64,000 nucleotides of DNA, taken from positions 2,656,342 to 2,720,341 of the forward strand of contig CAVNZM010000005.1 in the NCBI GenBank assembly GCA_963693365.1. The letters run 5' to 3'. The position numbers were made by a program, and so were the translations under genes. This document shows positions 506 to 57,338 of this stretch, piece after piece. Below the pieces are notes generated by a model. It was not told where the DNA came from. It did not search any database and saw only the letters and a list, made by a program, of their open reading frames with translations. Position 1 is the first letter of the stretch. The number at the start of each line of letters is the position of its first letter. This DNA is from Amoebidium appalachense (Eukaryota; Protista; Ichthyosporea).

Positions 506-6802
<6,297 letters not shown>

Positions 6803-7302: not shown

Positions 7303-7345
<43 letters not shown>

Positions 7346-7601
7346 AGCCCGGTTTCCAAGGGAGCCCGTAAAAAAAAAAACTATAAAAAAAAAAAACGGG
7401 AAACCCAACTAATTGATTTTCTTACTACTAGTAACAGTTTTTTTTAGGTGCTTCGTAGAGTAAGAAAACCCTGATACATATTAGCACCCGACATCTATGT
7501 ACTTGATCATGATATACCGCTGAGGGGATATTCCGAGCAAAACCCCCCCATACCTGAGACTGGTCTCTCTTTGCCTCGAGTAAATAACAGCGTAAACCCC
7601 C
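7270..7601 (+). mobile_element. 5'-truncated LINE copy related to the element at 52661-57533
   Basis: tgagaaacacgtcattacaaaat matches the end of ORF2 (tgagaaacacatcactacaaaat). It is followed by (CA)n, an A-tract and the same ~200-nt tail ending cagcgtaaacccc. Confidence 0.9.
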
Positions 7602-17585: not shown

Positions 17586-18260
17586 CGGCGCCGGATCTGT
17601 GGGGCTTGTGTACTATGTGGGTGCGGTTGCTAAATGGCTAATCAATGATCTGATCGGCGACCAATCAACCGTTACGTTATTGATCGAGTGGCTCACCAGA
17701 TTACGTAATATATGTGAATTTGCTCCAATCGCTCAAACCACGAAACAACTCCCGTGTGTCCGATTTCGCTTGGTCCCCCACGCGCAGACTTGGGTACTTT
17801 TCACTAGTAAACCCCTCCTGAAAATTGGCAGAAGTGGTTTTCCCGTTAGGATAAAGGCTTACACAGAGCCGTTTTGTTCGCCTCCGAGTATTACCTATGC
17901 TTCCCTAATACACTATGCTAGCCAATACATAGACATACCCTTAGAATCATAGGCGAACAGAACGGCTCTGTGTAAACGTTTGAATTAGTGAAAAAAACGT
18001 TTCTGCCAATTTTCGAGGGGGGTTTACTAGTGAAAAGTACCGAAGTCTGCGGGTGGAGGATTATGCCGGCGGCTCAAAAACGGTTACTCGGGCGATTTCG
18101 TGTTTTGCCCGATTGGGCTAAAGGCTGATGATTACGTAATCCGTGAGCCACGAAATTTGATCCAGTCAAATTTTAGATTGCGATTGGCCATAGATCAGGG
18201 ACTTCTGTTACTTATAGCGAGGCCGCTCAAATAACTCCAAAGCCCACAGATCCGGCGCCC
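17586..18260. mobile_element. Foldback MITE, possibly PIF/Harbinger-like
   Basis: Terminal inverted repeat ggcgccggatctgtggg/cccacagatccggcgcc. Internal inverted blocks at 17783-17833 vs 18001-18051 and 17859-17883 vs 17951-17975. Flanked by TAA and TTA. Confidence 0.75.
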
Positions 18261-23054: not shown

Positions 23055-42826
<19,772 letters not shown>

Positions 42827-44056: not shown

Positions 44057-44329
44057 CTATGTTGCCGCATCTGCCGCCTTCCCATTCTCCTGTGGCACTT
44101 CGATCATTTTCCTCCTCAACTTAGCCTGCTCCAACTGCTCGACCTTCTTAGCAAGTGCCTGTTGTGCCTGCAGTAGGCGGGTAAACAGAGCAAAGGCCTC
44201 CCTCAGTATGCCCTGCAGCTGGGCACTCACGGCACTAGCAATGGCTGCTGACAGCATGCCCGCAAACCACCTGCTGACCGTGTTGAGCAGACGCTCGTTG
44301 CGCACGTCCTTGTGGAATTGCACCTGTGT

Positions 44330-44384
<55 letters not shown>

Positions 44385-44963
44385 GATGTATGCGTTAGAG
44401 GGTTGGAAATATGGAGGAGACAACAAAGAGCAAAAACAAAACGTCACAAACGTGGGAAATCCAAAATCAAAACAATCAAGCGTGCAGGCAGAAGACACTT
44501 GAACAGAGCCATCATCAGGGGGGTTCCTATGCCTCCACAAAAGCATGGGTTTCGACTCTTTAACCTCTCGCGTGTGGTTCCCAAACCATACTTTGTTTCA
44601 ACAGCAATAGGCGAGTCCACCCGTCTCGGCCAGCAACGAGCAGGGTTGTTCAAGGACCAGCAATCTAAGAAAACGGGGGGGAGGGGGGGGGGGGGGGTAG
44701 GTAAACGAAGTGAGAACAAAGCATTGATAATCTGCCCTTGTCCTTTACCTTGCCCCCCCCCCCCTGTTCTTTCTACCTCGAATTGGTTGCCTACACACAC
44801 ACGTGCACACACCTGGAACGTGTTGAAGTGGGTCTTGAAGTCGCCGGCATCGAATATGGGGCACGAGTCTGGGCCGGGGGGCTGCATGACCCGCATGGCC
44901 ACAGACAGGTCCAGTCCCGGCTTAAGAATAGTCACATCAAGGTGCCCGGCATCCTGGGAGGGA

Positions 44964-45005
<42 letters not shown>

Positions 45006-46402
45006 TGAATGCGTCAAAAAGTACGAAGTACACAAGAACAAACGGATAACACGATGCAGAATGCAAGCCATACATAAAGAGTATGCATAATAAGCAGAGC
45101 CCATCCTCAGGGGGGGCCCACGTCATCCACAGTACCCGAGTTTCGACCTATTCCCCTCGTTAACGAAACCCAACTCAGATACTGTTTCACTTGAACATGA
45201 GTAGGTCACCCGTCTTGATCAGAGACGAGCAGGGTTGCTTATGCAGGCAAGGGCAGTGGGAAAGGCCGGGGGTTAAAGTTGCAGCAGTAAGCAGAAGCAA
45301 GAAAAATATAGATAGGAACTCAGGAGACGGGGCTTCTAGGAAGCTCCCCCGTCGATACCTAAGTCGATACTTCCCTGGCTAACATACTACACCAGCTGAA
45401 AAGAATTAAGTCCCGAAGGCCACAGAATTCGTAATCAGAGGGGAAAATATGAGATTTGACCCACGCCGCAGGGTAGTAACACGCTTACTAGGGCGGAACT
45501 TTATCGTCTTCGAACGGAAAGCTATGCCCCCGGATGTCAGCCGGAAATATGGTATCACCCATTGCTTTGGGCTTGAAAAAAGCCAAGGGGGGGGGGGGGG
45601 GGGGGGGGGGGGGTTTGAATGCGGAACACAGTACGAAGTACGCATACACGATGAGAAGCATGGTGCAGGACACATGCAAAGGCAAACATTCAACTATGCA
45701 GCATCAGCCATGCGCACAGTATGCGTCATAAGCAGAGCCCATCCTCAGGGAGGGGGGGGGGGGGGGGGGGGGGGTTAGTACAAAGAATAAACACAATGCA
45801 CACACAAAAAATGCAACATGATTAGCGCTAGTCGAAGGGGTGTCCAAGTCAAATCCTCCCCCGGAAGAGGGGGGGGGGGGGGGAAGGTGGAGGGGGAGGC
45901 AAGAACCCATGTGAACACGAACGAGCACCACGAGTGTGCTGTGAACTTTAAGGTTGGGTGGGTGGGTGGGTTGGAGGTGGTGGTGGTGGTGGTGGTGGGT
46001 TTTGTTGGGGGGGAGGGGGGGGGGAGAGGGGCTGCAGAACATACCGAGAAGGAAGGGAAAGACTTTTTGTCGTAGACGAAGTGGATGGGGTCTGTTACAG
46101 CCCCAATACCCCTGGCCACTATAGTGATCACCATCTGACTGCCCCCATTCGTTAAAGAATCCTCGTCTATCACTAGGTCCATCGTGCTCTGCATCAGTAG
46201 CTGCAGCCTCTCCGGCAGCTCAACCACCCGCACCACAATGTTGTCGATCACGTACGTGTCTTTGGATTTGAGCTCTTTAACGTCTGGTACCTGAGGAGGG
46301 AAAAGGTTGAGAGGGATTAGCAAAACAAAACTTAGGCTGAGTTGTATGGGATACAGGGGATTGCAACTGACGGTGGGGGGGAGAGAGAGAGAGAGTGGGG
46401 GT

Positions 46403-46436
<34 letters not shown>

Positions 46437-46597
46437 GATGTATGCGTTAGAGGGTTGGAAATATGGAGGAGACAACAAAGAGCAACAACAAAGCGTCACA
46501 AAGGTGGGAAATCCAAAATCAAACAACGTGCAGGCAGAAGACACTTGAACAGAGCCCATCATCAGGTCTCGCGCGTGGTTCCCAACCCATACTCTGT

Positions 46598-46648
<51 letters not shown>

Positions 46649-48761
46649 TTTTGAATGCGGAACACAGTACGAAGTACGCATACACGATGAGAAGCATGGT
46701 GCAGGACACATGCAAAGGCAAACATTCAAGTATGCAGCATCAGCCATGCGCACAGTATGCGTCATAAGCAGAGCCCATCCTCAGGGAGGGCCCAAGTCAT
46801 CAATTGCGTCTGAGTTTCGACCCCTTAGCCCGCGTATATACGACGCTCCAACTCAGACAGCAGCATCAACTGAACTTGGGTGGGTCAACCCGTCTTGATC
46901 AAAGACGAGCAGGGTTGCTTATGCAAGCAAGGTGAGCAAAACGGTGAAGATGTATGTGCAAACTAATGCAGTGCAGCGACAAACGCGTATGTGCTTACAG
47001 ATGCACGACACAGAGCAACCATGCCCGGTTGCATGGAAGTAAAGATGTCTCCACACAGTGGTCTGTCCTGAAAGGACACCTCTGAAAGAAGACAGGGGGG
47101 GTTTTGAATGCGGAACACAGTACGAAGTACGCATACACGATGAGAAGCATGGTGCAGGACACATGCAAAGGCAAACATTCAAGTATGCAGCATCAGCCAT
47201 GCGCACAGTATGCGTCATAAGCAGAGCCCATCCTCAGGGAGGGCCCAAGTCATCAATTGCGTCTGAGTTTCGACCCCTTAGCCCGCGTATATACGACGCT
47301 CCAACTCAGACAGCAGCATCAACTGAACTTGGGTGGGTCAACCCGTCTTGATCAAAGACGAGCAGGGTTGCTTATGCAAGCAAGGTGAGCAAAACGGTGA
47401 AGATGTATGTGCAAACTAATGCAGTGCAGCGACAAACGCGTATGTGCTTACAGATGCACGACACAGAGCAACCATGCCCGGTTGCATGGAAGTAAAGATG
47501 TCTCCACACAGTGGTCTGTCCTGAAAGGACACCTCTGAAAGAAGACAGGGGGGGTTTTGAATGCGGAACACAGTACGAAGTACGCATACACGATGAGAAG
47601 CATGGTGCAGGACACATGCAAAGGCAAACATTCAAGTATGCAGCATCAGCCATGCGCACAGTATGCGTCATAAGCAGAGCCCATCCTCAGGGAGGGCCCA
47701 AGTCATCAATTGCGTCTGAGTTTCGACCCCTTAGCCCGCGTATATACGACGCTCCAACTCAGGGGGGGGGGGGTGAGATGGGGCACAAGCGGGATGGGAG
47801 CCGGAAGAAGGTTGGGTCTTATACTAACTATGCCACACAGTGTGGAATATCAAGAAACAATACAAAAACTCAAGGTAGGACACGGAGTTATGTACGAAGA
47901 TAGACAAGGAGGGTGCCACATAAGCAAAGCTCACCCTTATTCAGAGAGGGGAAAAGGGGGGGGGGGGGGGGGGGGGGGGGGGGGAATGCAAGAAAGAAGG
48001 CAGGCCAGTTAGGAAGTTCTGTGACGTCCGCACCATCAGGTTAACCCCCCCCCCCCCCCCCCCCCTTTCCCCTCCCCCGGCTTTGTAGTTGCATTCTCCT
48101 GTGTCAATATACGAGATCCATGAGAGAACCAAAATGCATGCACCATTTGGAAGGAGCGGGGGCGGGGGGGGGGGGGGGGGAGGGGGGGGGGGGGGGGGGG
48201 GGGGGGATTAAGAGAGAGAGAAGGGAGGGTTCAAGCAGTGAAGGGAAAGTTTCGGCGCCGGGAGAGATGGGGGGAGAGCAGGGGGCGCGGGAAGGGGGTT
48301 CCAGACTGTTGGCCACACCTCGATACGACTGAGCCTCTTGGACAGGACGGGCCAGACAATGGCCCTGATCATAGTGGATGCGAAATTCATGGGGTCCTTT
48401 GTGAGCTGGCCAATCAGATCCTCCCCGCTCTCCTGCACGTGCTTCTCCACCCTCTGCAGCATCTCGCTCACCATAGACCCCTCACTGTTGAGTGGCTGCA
48501 TGGCCCCGTGCACCTCCACAGCCGCAGAGATGATGCCCTAATATGGAAATGAGGGCGAGTTTAGTTGAATTTGGAAGGGGGAGGGGTGGGCCGGGAGAGG
48601 GGAAGGGGGAGGGGGGGGGGGGGGGGGGGGTTGCAGAGTACGGTAATTGGAGTTCACATTCATTGCGGATAGCACCTTGCAAATTTGCCAGAGCCCATAT
48701 CCTCTGGGGAAAGTGTGTGGGTGTGTGGGTGTGTGAGTGTGTGGGCTGGGGGGCCAGGCGG

Positions 48762-48798
<37 letters not shown>

Positions 48799-48876
48799 GT
48801 TCACGGTGGTGAGGCTGACATAGTAAGGTAAAAGTGCACAGGGAGGAGCAAGAGAAAGAAGGCAAGATGTGTGTGT

Positions 48877-48909
<33 letters not shown>

Positions 48910-48933
48910 GGGGGGGAGGGAGGGGGGGGGGGG

Positions 48934-48967
<34 letters not shown>

Positions 48968-49087
48968 TATCACTCAGGGCAAGACAAGGAATTGTGGAGT
49001 CCATTATATTTATGCACTTGCAAGTAAACGCAAACAAGGCACGGATCTATTCCCTTCTTTTGGCTCTCGGCAAGGGAGGTGGGGGGA

Positions 49088-49166
<79 letters not shown>

Positions 49167-50247
49167 GAGCCTCCAACAATAATTACACCCCTACACTAAG
49201 GCCAGTCCCTCCTCCCTTCCCCCGAAAGTGGTACCTAGTGTGTAGATTACAGCTTCTGTAAACACATAAATTTAGCATTAGCAAGAGCCCAGAGTGTGCA
49301 AAATTACAAAAAGAGAGAAAGGGGCCAGGGGGAAGGGGGGGAGGGGGGGGGGGGGGGGGGGGGGGGATGATAGAATACTGCGGCAACCGTGGTGGTGCAG
49401 TGTATACACGCAAACAGACCTACAGAAAAACATGCTCTAGCTCTCAGGTCTCTTACACTCTCGCAAAACACTTTGTCACACTTGCGCTTAATCTCTCGGT
49501 TTCTTTCTCTCCCGTCACACACACAGTCTCTCTCTCCCTGCCCCCCTTCCCCCCCGAAAAAACTACCCTATCTCACTCTCAGCCTCTACCTTCCCTACCC
49601 CCTGCCCCTCACCCTTCGTGATACACCAACAGAGACTACAAACCCCATTCCCCTCCAACCTGCCCTCCCCCCAAACCCCCACCCCCCTTCACCCCCCACA
49701 CCTGCTGCTTCTTGAGAGCCTCCACCACATCATCGAAGTCCTTAGCCAGTTGCTCCTTCTCTGTGTTTCAACACAATAAATCAGCTGGAAAGTAACTGAA
49801 AACTACTCCGTGCTTCACTCAAGAGCACCGTCATCCAAGCCTACAGATGCCACAAGTAACAATTTGTTCTCCAAGTATATCTGCACCTTCAAGCAGCACA
49901 AAAGAAGAATGAGCCTGCCCTAATTGCTTATTCGAACACAACCACTGTGTTTGGCAAAGTAGACCTCGAAAACTTCACAGACGCTGTTCGGTTAACAAAC
50001 ACAGCCCCAAAGGACTAAGGCAAGAATCTGGCCTTACCAGCAGGCACAAATATTCTGAAAATGCTAGGACCTTTGAAAATACAAGTTGCCCGAAGAAAGA
50101 TGAAGGTGTAGGAAGCAGTGGGGCAGGCAGGGTTTCATAGGGAGGGAACAAGGGGGAGGGAAAGGGGGAGGAGGGAGGGGGGGGGGGGGGGGGGGGGGGA
50201 GGAGAGGCAACGGGCAAGAACGAGAGTGAGGTAACGGGAGAAGGCAG

Positions 50248-50291
<44 letters not shown>

Positions 50292-50838
50292 CGGGGGAAA
50301 GCAAAGGTGGAAGGGAAGTGGGGGAGTGGGAAGAAGGGAGGGAGGGAGGGGGGAGGAGAAGGGGGAAGGGGGGGGGGGGGGGGGGGGGGGGGGGTTGTAA
50401 CCACTGACCTATGGGCTTGTCGGACTCTGCGGCACCCAGCGAGTTTGCCAGCCTGCCCAGTGCGCTGTGAACCGTCTCGTCTCTTAGAGCCTCCACCAGT
50501 GCATGGGCACTCTCGTTGGTGCCAAACCCACCAATCTCAAGCAGAGCCCTAAAGAACTCTTCCGCTTCATCACCATCCCTCGCTGCCTCCAGGAAGAGGA
50601 TGAGCTTAAGAAGTGCCAGCTTGGCGACGCGCGCATCTTTCCCCTCCAGCTTGGCAAGTGCATCTATCCATTTCTCCTGTGATGCAAGCCCATCTACTAT
50701 GCTCTGGCCTGCCGTTTTGGGGTCTGCTGCCAGCGCACCAAAGAGCTCTTGAACGGCTGTGCGTGTGTGCTGCGAGGTGATGATATCATGCAGTAGCCCT
50801 ACAGCGCTGCTGTTGCTAACTTCTTCGTCTGCCGTCAT
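44057..50838 (-). CDS. Hypothetical multi-exon protein; helical N-terminus, possible C-terminal coiled coil
   Basis: High-complexity exons with GT-AG ends at about 50409-50838, 49700-49760, 48640-48703, 48318-48537, 46065-46290, 44813-44953 and 44057-44323. No family recognised. Confidence 0.7.
44384..44674 (-). mobile_element. Structured repeat subfamily C
   Basis: Lies between two G-runs. An internally deleted second copy is at 46436-46599. Confidence 0.85.
44498..44654 (-). ncRNA. Predicted atypical hammerhead ribozyme (subfamily C)
   Basis: Closing helix CUUGAACA/UGUUCAAG, GACUC/GAGUC-GAAAC, CUGAUGA and a k-turn. This copy reads UUU at the cleavage triplet; the 46436 copy retains GUU. 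Confidence 0.65.
45004..45279 (-). mobile_element. Structured repeat subfamily A; may extend to 45586
   Basis: Inverted near-identical match to 33248-33523. Ribozyme core at 45090-45243. Confidence 0.9.
45614..45751 (-). mobile_element. 5'-truncated subfamily B copy
   Basis: Matches about 46650-46787. Long G-runs on both sides. Confidence 0.9.
46436..46599 (-). mobile_element. Truncated, internally deleted subfamily C copy
   Basis: Matches 44384-44519, then jumps to the match for about 44566-44598. Confidence 0.85.
46763..46923 (-). ncRNA. Predicted atypical hammerhead ribozyme (subfamily B, unit 1)
   Basis: CAUAAGCA/UGCUUAUG, GACCC/GGGUC-GAAAC, GUU then GGA pairing with UCC before CUGAGGA, and a k-turn with a U.U pair. 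Confidence 0.7.
47216..47376 (-). ncRNA. Predicted atypical hammerhead ribozyme (subfamily B, unit 2)
   Basis: Same sequence as unit 1, shifted by 453 bp. Confidence 0.7.
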
Positions 50839-52216: not shown

Positions 52217-52808
52217 GTGTATGTGTGTGTCTGTGTGTGTTTGTGTGTGTGTATGAAGACGTATGTGCGCTTACGTGTGTGTGCAGGTGTGTGCGCATAT
52301 ACACTCTTTTTATGTGCGTGTTCGTGTGTGTGTTCGCGCATTTGTGCGTGTGCGTGTTGCAGTGTGTGTGTGCATGTAGCCTTCAGAGTAGCCAGCCTTT
52401 TGCCGAAAGGCGTTTACTGAACAAAAAGCTGGCTCCAGAGATAACTTCCGGAGCGCCGTAATTTTTTTCACATTGAGCCCATCAACTCCGCTTGCTAGCG
52501 CACGGGGAGGGAGACGCACAAGGCAGAGATGCCGTTTTTGCGCCATTACCTCACACATCGTTAAGGAACCAGGCTAGGCTACCTGTAACCCGAATACTTA
52601 GGTCACAGTGACACAGAGCCTTTGTCTGTTTTGTCTGTGGCACAGGACAGGTGACGTATGAAATAGATACTTCACACAAATAGATACTTCACACATCGAT
52701 TCAAATGTCGCTCTTTATTATCTGCTAATAAATAGTATCCTTCGCGCATCCACCCCTAAACCAGGCCATCCGTGGCCCTAAGGGCCGGGGAACACCCCCA
52801 TCCATGTC

Positions 52809-53993
52809 ATGGCACATGCCTATAATCGTTTCAGAACCTCTTTCAAAGTTCCATCTACACCCATCACACATGTGCGACCATTAAAACGTCCAGCAGATAC
52901 ACCTACCACAGATGCACAACCAGAAAAACATCGCCTTAGACTAAGCGCAACACCTATTTACAATACACTACCCATTCAGAATAACACCACACCACTCCGT
53001 AGAAACACAATAACAACCATGCCGAAACTTTCGGTTGATACAGTACTGGCAGAACTTGCCCTCGTTAAGAAACAGCTAAATGAGCTGTTACCACTCAAGA
53101 ACATGATAGAAAAACTCCAAACAGAAAATACCCAACTCAAGCTCACCATTGATTCACTCACAGCCCAGCTAAACATTAGTGGATCGCAAAACCCCAAAAC
53201 TCATGAGCAAACATCTCGCGACGGAGACATTTCCACCCCAACACAAAACAACACAGGACCGGAAGCACAGCTCCCGGCAGAGTTCCTAGAATATGCGAAC
53301 TCTCGTAAAACACCCGAGCTCCGCCAAATTGCCAAGGAAACATATGCCAGCATTCTTGCAGGCAACGAGTACCGCCGCAACTCCCCTCCCAAACCGCCGG
53401 CTAAGGGGAACACCCAAGCAAACGGTAACATCAACATCCCACCCAAATACGAGAGGGTGTATTTCAAAGTCAAGCACGGCAGACGCCCACACAGGGCCAT
53501 GTGGTCCATCTTCAAGGCTCTCGGCTTCCGGTGCTCTCGCATCCTTTGTCTGTCCTTCATTGGATACGATGTGCTGGAAGTAGCAGTACGGGGCGACTAT
53601 AACCGTGCGTTCATCCGTGACGCGACAAAGGGGTGTGGAAGCTTCTTCACCCACCTCCCAAGCTACGACCCATGCGCGCCGGAAAACATTCAGAAAGCAG
53701 ACAAAGAACGTAAAGTGTCTGCTAAGAATGCGTGCGCCACACGTTGTCGTGTACGCATCAGCAAGGCAAAAGAGTTCCTCGCAAAGTTGGAAAACGATGC
53801 TACGAGCGTGATAGACACGGACACGAAGGAACCAATGTTTTCTGGTGAGAAACTGCTCGAGCGCAAACGCCGATGCGAGATGGAAATCGAGCTCTTCTGC
53901 GAACTGTTCGCGCTGGCGGAAGGTCGTGCATACGACCCCGTAAGCGACAAGTGGGAACCAACCCCACAGGTGTCGGACCAAACCGATGCCTAA
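52809..53993 (+). CDS. LINE ORF1 protein (coiled coil + conserved C-terminal domain)
   Basis: 394-aa intronless ORF with a heptad-rich segment (LAELALVKKQLNELL...LQTENTQLKLTIDSL). Overlaps ORF2 by 8 nt (ATGCCTAA). Confidence 0.85.
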   Translation: MAHAYNRFRTSFKVPSTPITHVRPLKRPADTPTTDAQPEKHRLRLSATPIYNTLPIQNNTTPLRRNTITTMPKLSVDTVLAELALVKKQLNELLPLKNMIEKLQTENTQLKLTIDSLTAQLNISGSQNPKTHEQTSRDGDISTPTQNNTGPEAQLPAEFLEYANSRKTPELRQIAKETYASILAGNEYRRNSPPKPPAKGNTQANGNINIPPKYERVYFKVKHGRRPHRAMWSIFKALGFRCSRILCLSFIGYDVLEVAVRGDYNRAFIRDATKGCGSFFTHLPSYDPCAPENIQKADKERKVSAKNACATRCRVRISKAKEFLAKLENDATSVIDTDTKEPMFSGEKLLERKRRCEMEIELFCELFALAEGRAYDPVSDKWEPTPQVSDQTDA

Positions 53994-56900
53994 TTTATCC
54001 TTCTTCTTCTGGAATGCTCGGACACTGGGCCCCCAAAAGGGCCTCCCCCCCGGGACACTCGACGATAAAATCAGCTACATACAACAACAGACAAACAACC
54101 ACACGTTTACAGTGATTTGCGAAACACAGTTTAAAAACCACCACAAATTCAACTCTACATTGGTCGACACATCCACACACCCCGGTTACGCGAAAAACCG
54201 AGGCATTATTGTACTTGCCGCACCACACGTGAGAGTGAAGTGCAAACCGGTAGCAAAAACGGAATTCTCGGTTTCTATAGAGTTTCTTTCTAATGTTTTT
54301 ACTTTTGTATATTACCCACCATCTATGTCGGTTGTCGAATTGACTCACGAGTTGTCACAGTTACCAATGTCCACTGTTATTTTAGGTGATTTTAACACGC
54401 GACTCCACCACACAGACACACTGCAAGTGAGTGTCGGGTACCCATCTAAGCCCCCGGAGCGTGCTATCCCTTTAGCAAGGTATGTCCAAAGTCACACTTT
54501 GCGGTTCCCTCAAATATCCCATGCCCACAACACCGACTGGGGAGTGGCCTTTTGGCCATCAACCATGTCAAAACTCTCTCTCCCTCCTAACCTCTCTAGG
54601 TCATCTGACCACTCTCCTATCCTTTTCCTACCTAAGATCTCCCTTGATCTGCTCCCCCCTCCCCCTCCCACCTTTCGCCTCCGTCTATCCCAGCTTAAGT
54701 CACAGTGGGGTAGAGTTGATGTATGTGTATGCTATGCTACGAAACACCCTATATATATGCGCCTATTAGAATCTGCACAAGCCAGGCCAGATTCACATCT
54801 CGTACTAGATACATGCACTAACTTTATTGTTGATGATTTGATAGATCTCGGTGATTATGCTGGCGGTGGTAGGAAGGAATATCCCGATGCTCTCTTGTTA
54901 CCAAACACCACTCCCGCTAGACTAGGTGAACCCCTGTCTCAAAAGGAAAGCTTGCGCCGGCTTGCTAGTATGAATCGATTTGGCCCCCCTGCTCGTATTA
55001 TTGGTGATACCACTGGAGACCCCCTCATAGACTCTGATAAGTATTTCTCGGAACTGTTTAAAGATAGGACCCCCGCTCAGAAACCTATTGTGTGGCCTGT
55101 AGACCCATCTATCCCCATAGAATCGATCCTCCCCTTTTTCAGTCCCGATGCCATATGGTCTGTGATATCTAGTTATAGCTCTAGTAAGTCTTGTGGACCT
55201 GATGGACTCCCTGCTGGGTTTCTTAAAATCCTTGTTCCCTCCTACCCACAAAAGGAAAGTGATCGTGCTATTAAACCTGATCTTACTATCATGTTAAGCT
55301 CTCTCTTTTCTTGGTGTGTTAAATGTGGACATGTCCCGTCATCTTGGTTAGATACCTTAGTGATCCCCATAGTTAAGAAGGACTCTGAGGGCCCCATATC
55401 ATCCTTTCGCCCCATTACACTAACCCAGGTTGTTCGTAGATTCTTTGAAGCTTGCTTACTTAGGTTATTTGCACATCACCCTAGGTTTCAATCTATTCTT
55501 CACATACACCCATGCCAATCCGCTTTTCGTAAAAACAATTCATGTTATGTTCAAATAATGGCACTGCACGATTCTATGCAAGTTGGTGCACAATATGTTG
55601 GCTTTATTGATTGGAAAACTGCTTACGATTCTGTCTCCCCTGGTCTCCTATGGGAAAAGCTTGCTGCACGGGGTGTACCACACTGCATTGGTGTTCTGTT
55701 AGAAGCACTCTTGTCTCAAACCTATGGTAGAGCTGTGGTTAATGGGCATCTTTCATATGGTTTTGCTCGTACTAGAGGTCTCTTGCAGGGCTCATTGCTT
55801 AGCCCCTTTTTGTTTAACCTATTTATAGATGATTTGGCTGTCAAGATTTACGCCGAAAACGATGACCCTATTAATAACTTTCCGCCTGCACTTCTCTATG
55901 CTGATGATCTGTCCCTCCTTGCCCGTACCCCTAGACGCCTGCAAAGATTGTTCGATGTAGTGTCAGAGTGGTGCAAGGCAAACCTTATGATCCTTAACAT
56001 AGACAAATGTGGTGTTCTTGTACCTGATATAGCTAACAATTTACACACATTTACATTATCATCTAAACCTGTACCTATAGTTCCAGAATACAAATATCTT
56101 GGTGTTCCGGTTGATTCTGTTGGTGTTATGTTTCCCCATATGGTCGAAAAGAGGGTAGAGTTGGCTCGTAAGCGGTTAGCTTTCTTCTCGGCTAATATTT
56201 TTAAAGACACACCCCTCCATCCTTCTATTAGACTTACATTTATTCGCACTTTTGTCTTCCCGGCATGTGAATATGGTTTACCCCTTCTCGCCGCTTGGAT
56301 CAAGAAAGAGAGAACTAGAGCGCTTAAACCCTTGGCAAATTTCCTTGAAGCAGAAGTTGCCTCCTTTCTATCTAACAACTGTTGTAAACCTGGGCCTGTA
56401 ACGCTCTCGATATATGGTCTGGTCCCAATAGCTGCTAGAGTATCCTATCTCGCGCTGAAATTCAATAAGCACATAAGCCGCTTAAAGAAGTATTTGCCCT
56501 CCCACCCTCTCTTCTCTATCCGACCTGTCCCCTCCTCACCTCTCCCCTCTTTCCTCCCCTCTCTCTCCCCTTCTCCCCTGGGCACAAATACAAATAAACC
56601 CCGCAATAGTGTGTGTGTGACTTTGGACTGCCACTTACTTATTAAACATGTACACAATCACAAGATAATCACGCAATATAACAAATGGAAAAAGATACCA
56701 AACGACACTAGACCCGATGAAAGCATACACCTTGAAAAACTAAGCCTTATGTCTCGTTTTATATATACTGACCGCCTCAACCATATTGCCAAATATGGCA
56801 CTCGCAAGTGTATAACACCTAAATACATATTACCTTCCTGTAGAACTGGTCTTTCTCTAGCTGATGGTATTATTGATCAATTACCACGCTTTTACTGTAC

Positions 56901-57180
56901 ACGTGCTATACAGTGGAGATCTAATAAGTATAAGGTGGCATCATTTGCATGCCCAAACAACACACACACACACCAGTTTAACCGGTCATGTATCGCCAAA
57001 TGTAGTTTGATAGACCACATAATACCGCAACACACACACGTCACATTCACAACAGACACCCAGAAAGATAGCCTACCTGTAAATTACAACATCCTTGATT
57101 TTATACTAAACACGCGTAACTACGACCTGTTTATTAGATGTATTGATTGGCTTGAGAAACACATCACTACAAAATTATAG
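53986..57180 (+). CDS. LINE ORF2: AP-endonuclease + reverse transcriptase
   Basis: APE motifs WNARTL, CETQ, GDFN, SDH. RT motifs GPDG, FRPITL, QGSLLSPFLF, YADD, YKYLG. Confidence 0.97.
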   Translation: MPNLSFFFWNARTLGPQKGLPPGTLDDKISYIQQQTNNHTFTVICETQFKNHHKFNSTLVDTSTHPGYAKNRGIIVLAAPHVRVKCKPVAKTEFSVSIEFLSNVFTFVYYPPSMSVVELTHELSQLPMSTVILGDFNTRLHHTDTLQVSVGYPSKPPERAIPLARYVQSHTLRFPQISHAHNTDWGVAFWPSTMSKLSLPPNLSRSSDHSPILFLPKISLDLLPPPPPTFRLRLSQLKSQWGRVDVCVCYATKHPIYMRLLESAQARPDSHLVLDTCTNFIVDDLIDLGDYAGGGRKEYPDALLLPNTTPARLGEPLSQKESLRRLASMNRFGPPARIIGDTTGDPLIDSDKYFSELFKDRTPAQKPIVWPVDPSIPIESILPFFSPDAIWSVISSYSSSKSCGPDGLPAGFLKILVPSYPQKESDRAIKPDLTIMLSSLFSWCVKCGHVPSSWLDTLVIPIVKKDSEGPISSFRPITLTQVVRRFFEACLLRLFAHHPRFQSILHIHPCQSAFRKNNSCYVQIMALHDSMQVGAQYVGFIDWKTAYDSVSPGLLWEKLAARGVPHCIGVLLEALLSQTYGRAVVNGHLSYGFARTRGLLQGSLLSPFLFNLFIDDLAVKIYAENDDPINNFPPALLYADDLSLLARTPRRLQRLFDVVSEWCKANLMILNIDKCGVLVPDIANNLHTFTLSSKPVPIVPEYKYLGVPVDSVGVMFPHMVEKRVELARKRLAFFSANIFKDTPLHPSIRLTFIRTFVFPACEYGLPLLAAWIKKERTRALKPLANFLEAEVASFLSNNCCKPGPVTLSIYGLVPIAARVSYLALKFNKHISRLKKYLPSHPLFSIRPVPSSPLPSFLPSLSPSPLGTNTNKPRNSVCVTLDCHLLIKHVHNHKIITQYNKWKKIPNDTRPDESIHLEKLSLMSRFIYTDRLNHIAKYGTRKCITPKYILPSCRTGLSLADGIIDQLPRFYCTRAIQWRSNKYKVASFACPNNTHTHQFNRSCIAKCSLIDHIIPQHTHVTFTTDTQKDSLPVNYNILDFILNTRNYDLFIRCIDWLEKHITTKL

Positions 57181-57200
57181 CGCACGCGCACACACACACA

Positions 57201-57261
<61 letters not shown>

Positions 57262-57293
57262 CCAGCTGATACCGAGTGTCCCGAGGGGAGCCC

Positions 57294-57338
<45 letters not shown>

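Follow-up and report, generated by a model that had tools for sequence, protein, structure and literature searches.

A non-coding repeat that inserts into G-runs and is predicted to give rise to a self-cutting minus-strand RNA was found in the Amoebidium appalachense DNA analysed here, a stretch of 64 kb hereafter called the window. We hold, with a probability of roughly 0.55, that this RNA is cut by a hammerhead of type SGC, likely passes through a 453-nt circle and likely returns to DNA by means of a borrowed, probably Penelope-like reverse transcriptase. The tandem array from which the analysis started is real, recently inserted and part of a large mobile family.

A tandem array within a dispersed family

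As assembled, the array comprises 2.46 units of 453 bp with a GC content of 50.8% (Table 1), in agreement with the preliminary description of this DNA, which had counted about 2.5 identical units. Comparison of the sequence with itself at a lag of 453 gave no mismatch from 46649 to 47309, position 46648 being the sole mismatch before the G-run, and this identity of the units backs the recent insertion already proposed. The absence of a credible ORF was likewise borne out, as stops are present in all six frames of the circularised unit and the longest stretch free of stops, 104 aa on the minus strand, is without Pfam match and carries a 1-nt deletion in one RNA contig. An endless ORF, for which the unit has a suitable length (453 = 3 x 151), is ruled out because every frame has a stop. 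Nothing convincing in the way of Pol III boxes was found in the element, and the monomer is not unusually stable, its fold being only slightly better than that of shuffles (z of -1.4 for the circular form and -1.55 for the linear one).

Table 1. Features of the array, of its predicted ribozymes and of related insertions in the window
Feature	Coordinates	Strand	Remarks
Tandem array, subfamily A	46649..47762	-	2.46 x 453 bp; minus strand is RNA sense
Predicted cut-to-cut monomer 1	47303..47755	-	453 nt
Predicted cut-to-cut monomer 2	46850..47302	-	453 nt
Internal C7 run	47548..47554; also 47095-47101	-	presumed priming site, judged from insertion starts
G48 run at cDNA start	46600..46647	+	target
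G12 run, far junction	47762..47773	+	junction in X1 and X4 contigs
Hairpin region 5' of ribozyme	47341..47370	-	holds 13-nt motif invariant in A, B and C
13-nt motif copies	47358-47370; 46905-46917; 45225-45237; 44636-44648; 33290-33302
Type-SGC hammerhead, first copy	47671..47762	-	predicted cut 47756/47755; array end shortens stem III to 6 bp
Type-SGC hammerhead, full copy	47218..47312	-	predicted cut 47303/47302, after GUU
Full copy, 5' part	III-a 47312-47304; I-a 47302-47299; II-b 47277-47272	-	linker hairpin follows I-a
Full copy, middle	GAAA 47271-47268; III-b to 47260; joining helix 47247-47243 with 47222-47218	-
Full copy, 3' part	I-b 47241-47238; CUGAGGA 47237-47231; II-a 47228-47223	-	UG insert between CUGAGGA and II-a
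Type-SGC hammerhead, third copy	46765..46859	-	predicted cut 46850/46849
Host intron containing the array	46291..48318	-	GT-AG; spliced RNA contigs in X12 and X13
Subfamily A copy	45614..45754	-	5'-truncated, inside G-run; 1 mismatch in 141
Subfamily B copy	44989..45279	-	complete SGC motif, predicted cut 45172; may extend to 45587
Subfamily B copy	33248..33538	+	complete SGC motif, predicted cut 33355
Subfamily B copy	4046..4198	-	truncated within ribozyme
Subfamily C copy	44384..44678	-	CUGAUGA core; cleavage triplet UUU, one substitution
Subfamily C copy adjoining the array	46437..46599	-	GAAA block deleted

A unique local duplication was one outcome that would have spoken against the preliminary description, which had called for a search at other loci. 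The window holds seven insertions belonging to three subfamilies (A, B and C), which speaks for a mobile family with dispersed copies and against a unique duplication. In all seven, the cDNA strand starts at a G-run matching the unit's own G7 (a C-run in RNA sense), against a background in which GGGGG precedes just 2.4% of positions, and all seven are followed by a G-run as well. This start lies 168-200 nt downstream of the predicted cut in the three subfamilies, where measured. The far ends, corresponding to the 5' end of the RNA, are scattered, and no target-site duplication beyond the G-run is visible at any of the seven insertions.

The informative end of the array is therefore the fixed start at the internal C-run and not the 5' end, on which the preliminary description had leaned. 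The RNA-sense 5' end does lie close to the predicted cut (47761/47762, 6-7 nt upstream), but a cleaved template would end exactly at 47755. This closeness is poor evidence for the model because its chance is 8/453 per copy, with seven copies to draw from, and because the six other insertions end elsewhere.

Several further features of the window deserve mention. It contains 125 G or C runs of at least 10, which make up 4.8% of bases and are regionally strand-biased. The 308 bp at 45280-45587, unique in the window, stand between a B copy and the short A copy, end at a G-run and may complete a longer B element. The 13-nt motif listed in Table 1 has five exact matches in the window for 0.09 expected, is located 55-60 nt upstream of the predicted cut and is possibly a protein-binding or promoter signal. 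Elsewhere, a 33-bp tandem repeat of about 13 copies with an in-frame Met/Gly/Gln/Pro-rich reading occupies 23178-23610, and an imperfect, MITE-like inverted repeat of about 460 bp occupies 17688-18151.

Duplication of a single copy in place within the DNA, or a unit number created by the assembly, would also account for units that are 100% identical, and short-read contigs cannot count array units. However, an RNA contig with other alleles runs through the junction between units, which means that tandem or circular forms are also present outside the array locus. Furthermore, the array departs from the family majority at 47407, 47547 and 47643, and since it bears minority alleles at these three sites it was not polished to the majority sequence. 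We therefore consider a local duplication or an artefact highly improbable. The right-hand junction of the array was found in contigs of both DNA runs examined (X1 and X4, both possible sources), the element side being covered for just 25-29 nt.

The family extends well beyond this locus, as 20 public runs, filed under five organism codes and none of them on record as RNA, contain half or more of the unit's words. Five run rows are flagged as possible sources, and outside their two studies, five further studies hold the unit. In the DNA run X1, 14,486 contigs fall on a 631-bp stretch versus one on a host exon stretch, which indicates a large family, contig depth being taken neither as an expression level nor as a copy number.

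The array resides in an intron of a gene whose transcript maps in six pieces on the minus strand (44060-50838). The protein deduced from the exons near the array has a match at 100% to a EukProt transcript and at 58% to a single further protein; the latter bears the label Ihof, which we take to be Ichthyophonus hoferi and which places the host among the ichthyosporeans. In contigs of X12 and X13, exons 3, 4 and 5 of this gene are joined, which identifies these contigs as RNA and indicates that the array intron is spliced out in that sample. Five insertions occupy three successive introns of the host gene, all five in host sense, and the 4 kb copy, beside an exon with a CG-1 domain, is in host sense too; the tally is made up of these six copies, as the gene strand at the 33 kb copy is not fixable. 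On the plus strand of the host gene span, 24 G-runs stand against two C-runs, and this local strand bias would explain why copies land in host sense. In the one gene that is fully mapped, the C-runs are on the sense strand. The CG-1 exon (4990-5325, minus strand, E 1e-15) is that of a CAMTA-like transcription factor.

A predicted type-SGC hammerhead in each unit

Each unit contains an intact hammerhead core in which the blocks follow the non-circular order S-G-C (cleavage site, GAAA, CUGAnGA). On the minus strand, the subfamilies have in common a GUU-GG site, then GUCGAAAC, then CUGAnGA. A descriptor that covers the six possible orders of the hammerhead blocks, applied to each strand of the window, returned five matches, all of type SGC and all in subfamilies A or B, with predicted cuts at 47756, 47303, 46850, 45172 and 33355; it agrees with the single ribozyme-like motif per unit and the cut at 47756/47755 announced beforehand. 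Among 3000 shuffles of the unit, two gave any descriptor match and none an equally strong one, and in phage contigs the descriptor picks up many ordinary type II hammerheads, which serves as a positive control. Rfam returned no match at gathering threshold for the window and none at E<=10 for the array, and neither Rfam nor the six-order descriptor detected a type I, II or III hammerhead in the window. The opposite strand yielded no ribozyme. A reading as a twister, hairpin, pistol or HDV-like ribozyme was set aside, since comparison by eye with the consensus motifs showed no fit.

The core reads CUGAGGA followed by a UG insert (or a U and a bulged G), with a GUU triplet at the cleavage site. 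It thereby combines CUGAnGA, GAAA, the G10.1-C11.1 and A15.1-U16.1 pairs and an NUH triplet with at most 2 inserted nucleotides. In subfamily A, stems I, II and III have 4, 6 and 9 bp and the joining helix between stems I and II has 5 bp. When the sequences are anchored on the motifs, all four helices are kept in B and C with different letters. Stem III then has 9 bp in A, 13 in B1, 13 in B2 and 11 pairs plus one mismatch in C; in the same order, stem I has 4, 3, 3 and 3 bp (with an A-U to G-C change), stem II 6, 4, 4 and 6 bp (U-G to U-A) and the joining helix 5, 6, 6 and 4 bp (G-C to A-U). The G-U pairs of these helices work only on the minus strand, which is therefore the RNA strand.

In the MAFFT alignment, 92.5% of 93 cells pair versus 31-54% in slid controls, and two-sided changes affect four of the nine stem III pairs. 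The three pseudoknot helices show no two-sided change in that alignment, partly because gaps are misplaced; one such change each in stem I and in the joining helix appears only with motif anchoring. Judged from this set of four sequences and three subfamilies, covariation appears clear in stem III, itself a plain hairpin, and modest in the pseudoknot helices.

Whether this fold is active bears directly on the nature of the element, which could also be SINE-like and move without self-cleavage, the hammerhead-like fold being a relic that is silent or weak. Stem I is short, with 3-4 bp, a hairpin lies in the long S-G linker (20-21 nt), and a strong local hairpin that would compete with the fold and bury the core has a predicted energy of -14.2 kcal/mol for A and -12.0 for B. 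The lack of an Rfam match and an RNA contig that spans the cut site uncut point the same way. However, RNA crossing the cut is also expected from a religated circle, and the core motifs are both intact in the five complete A and B motifs as well as in the C copy at 44.5 kb. The helices, moreover, are kept although the 3' arm has diverged to 53% identity between A and B (79% across the ribozyme). A relic is thus an improbable explanation, and real cleavage by the predicted SGC hammerhead is in our opinion likely.

Transcripts and proposed route of copying

Four RNA contigs from X12 tile the whole unit in a closed loop, with the cut site lying inside one of them and the C7 junction inside another. 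X12 and X13 represent one sample, and as contigs cannot show circles or ends, this loop is equally compatible with a circle, with uncut multimers or with DNA carried over. Differences from the array at 47407, 47547, 47555, 47572 and 47594 show that the X12 contigs derive from sister copies, so that this RNA is not tied to the array locus. No weight is given to absent cover, be it of the intron flanks in X12 and X13 or of the exon in X10.

On the reading that we favour, copies in host sense would be transcribed along with the pre-mRNA, successive predicted ribozymes would release a 453-nt monomer and a host ligase would close it into a circle. The 3' end of a genomic G-run would then pair with the internal C7 run and serve as primer for cDNA synthesis, short runs of reverse transcription giving truncated copies and 2.46 turns of the template giving the array. 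Cleavage, ligation, priming and the identity of the enzyme are steps that we infer. Priming would be internal, as on a circle, because the cDNA start keeps its distance from the cut in three subfamilies, and the fixed start fits a template without a free 3' end at that point. One template read 2.46 times explains why the units are identical while bearing minority alleles.

The copying enzyme is probably Penelope-like. No autonomous partner element, which for a Chlamys/Naiad element would share the 3' end and encode a reverse transcriptase and an N-terminal GIY-YIG nuclease, was found in the window, and neither of two candidates found support. A 59-aa stretch (45409-45585, minus strand) upstream of the 45 kb copy, considered as a possible tail of a Penelope reverse transcriptase, has no database match. 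The apparently intact LINE at 52782-57330 (plus strand) shares no sequence with the element and has a poly-A tail. This LINE encodes an ORF1 of 403 aa and an ORF2 of 1078 aa with RVT_1, is 98% identical to a transcriptome protein and has many relatives in which an APE endonuclease domain is present; the sequence at 7305-7600 is similar to the 3' end of the LINE.

A working ribozyme could also belong to a non-autonomous Penelope element of the Chlamys/Naiad type, similar to MRC1, whose tandems would derive from linear read-through multimers or from template jumps by the reverse transcriptase, circles being absent or a by-product. According to the accessible parts of Craig et al. 2021, non-autonomous Chlamys elements have (C)n targets, frequent 5' truncation and head-to-tail multicopies and lack a canonical hammerhead. 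Furthermore, the S-G-C order, with stems I and III and a stem II of just 2 bp, can be recognised by eye in two octopus Naiad consensus 3' ends of the supplement, and the competing hairpin would leave many multimers uncut. On the other hand, identical units with the minority allele at several variable sites point to one template that was re-read, and no Penelope-like partner was detected in the window. The sole difference from the circular route is the shape of the template, and we regard a linear one as rather unlikely.

Comparison with known ribozymes and retroelements

In the literature searched, the type-SGC hammerhead is described only by Eckert et al. 2023 (PMC10085705). According to the portions of that article at hand, a fourth helix, which joins stem I to stem II, is required in SGC, this type was found only in metatranscriptomes (an SGC variant being listed as RNA only), and, save for one type-GCS candidate, the RNAs were not found in the genomes of known organisms. 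The motif described here shares with the published one the S-G-C order, CUGAnGA, GAAA, stems I-III and the joining helix, and its GUU triplet, CUGAGGA core and U after the core all occur among the variants in those portions. It differs in its location in a mobile repeat of eukaryotic genomic DNA and in that cleavage is here predicted. Its stem I (3-4 bp instead of 5-7) and its S-G linker (about 3 nt in the published motif, here 20-21 nt including a hairpin) are also unlike the published ones, and it has an extra G after the U. It has neither the fixed 5-bp stem I sequence nor the linker of about 3 nt by which the same portions define the narrow HRIMA-1 family and is assigned to the SGC topology, not to HRIMA-1.

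The literature searched, to which subscription journals are mostly external, holds no report of an SGC ribozyme in a unicellular holozoan, nor of ichthyosporean hammerhead ribozymes, permuted hammerheads in retrotransposons or Penelope retrotransposons of Amoebidium. Among the matches listed for non-circularly permuted hammerheads (including PMC13725137), no title concerns genomic retroelements, and the words ribozyme, Penelope and SINE are absent from the main text of PMC11244446. A strict pattern of the element had no match in metagenome contigs. Relaxed patterns gave at least 119 metagenome loci (28/64 parts) and at least 123 viral loci (53/64 parts), and none of these 242 loci matches the units by BLAST. 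They were rejected as relatives, being ordinary type II hammerheads together with a few minimal-stem SGC-order matches treated as chance. Phage contigs (L005, L121-L242) contain many of the type II hammerheads, in which a U follows the core, and four loci (L005, L143, L176 and L241) have several per contig.

The resemblance to Chlamys (MRC1) and to Naiad/Chlamys elements, as far as the accessible text of Craig et al. 2021 (PMC8557442) goes, extends to fixed 3' ends and to the lack of a discernible target-site duplication; a circle is not shown there for the head-to-tail (C)n insertions. A permuted ribozyme, unlike here, is not described in that text, and ichthyosporeans are absent from its main part. 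An exact-word search of the supplement, limited by line breaks and word choice, gave no SGC-like motif among the Chlamys passages displayed. Surveys for retrozymes would miss elements such as the present one because their descriptors are of type I or III, and the "lack of canonical hammerheads" in Naiad/Chlamys elements may share that cause. We propose, as a tentative extension, that SGC hammerheads might be the standard, overlooked ribozyme of Penelope-like elements with an N-terminal endonuclease and of their circular-RNA dependants since before animals. The ichthyosporean family would then be an active, intron-riding, poly-G-primed circle retrozyme linking retroelements of genomes to the viroid-like RNAs with SGC ribozymes known from metatranscriptomes.

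A high-copy genomic family gives the type-SGC hammerhead, known earlier only from metatranscriptomes of unknown host, a host and a likely function. Fixed priming at an internal C-run makes the debated step from circle to cDNA directly testable, and sense ribozymes in a spliced intron offer a test of host tolerance to the cutting of pre-mRNA.

The preliminary description had recognised the signature of a non-LTR retrozyme, and this holds for the tandem, non-coding and dispersed character of the element and for its ribozyme-like motif, whose type is SGC instead of I. As far as can be judged from the parts at hand of the work on animal non-LTR retrozymes (Cervera and de la Pena 2020, PMC7229834; Li et al. 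2026, bioRxiv 10.64898/2026.07.22.740005), both consist of short tandem repeats that are non-coding, carry one hammerhead in each unit, are dispersed and transcribed and presumably depend on Penelope-like elements. The unit length and GC content are at or just over the ranges published there (repeats of about 150-450 bp). The family differs from those of animals in its hammerhead type, its unicellular holozoan host and its G/C homopolymer targets. It is not filed as a non-LTR retrozyme because its hammerhead is not of type I; it works like one, with a different type of hammerhead.
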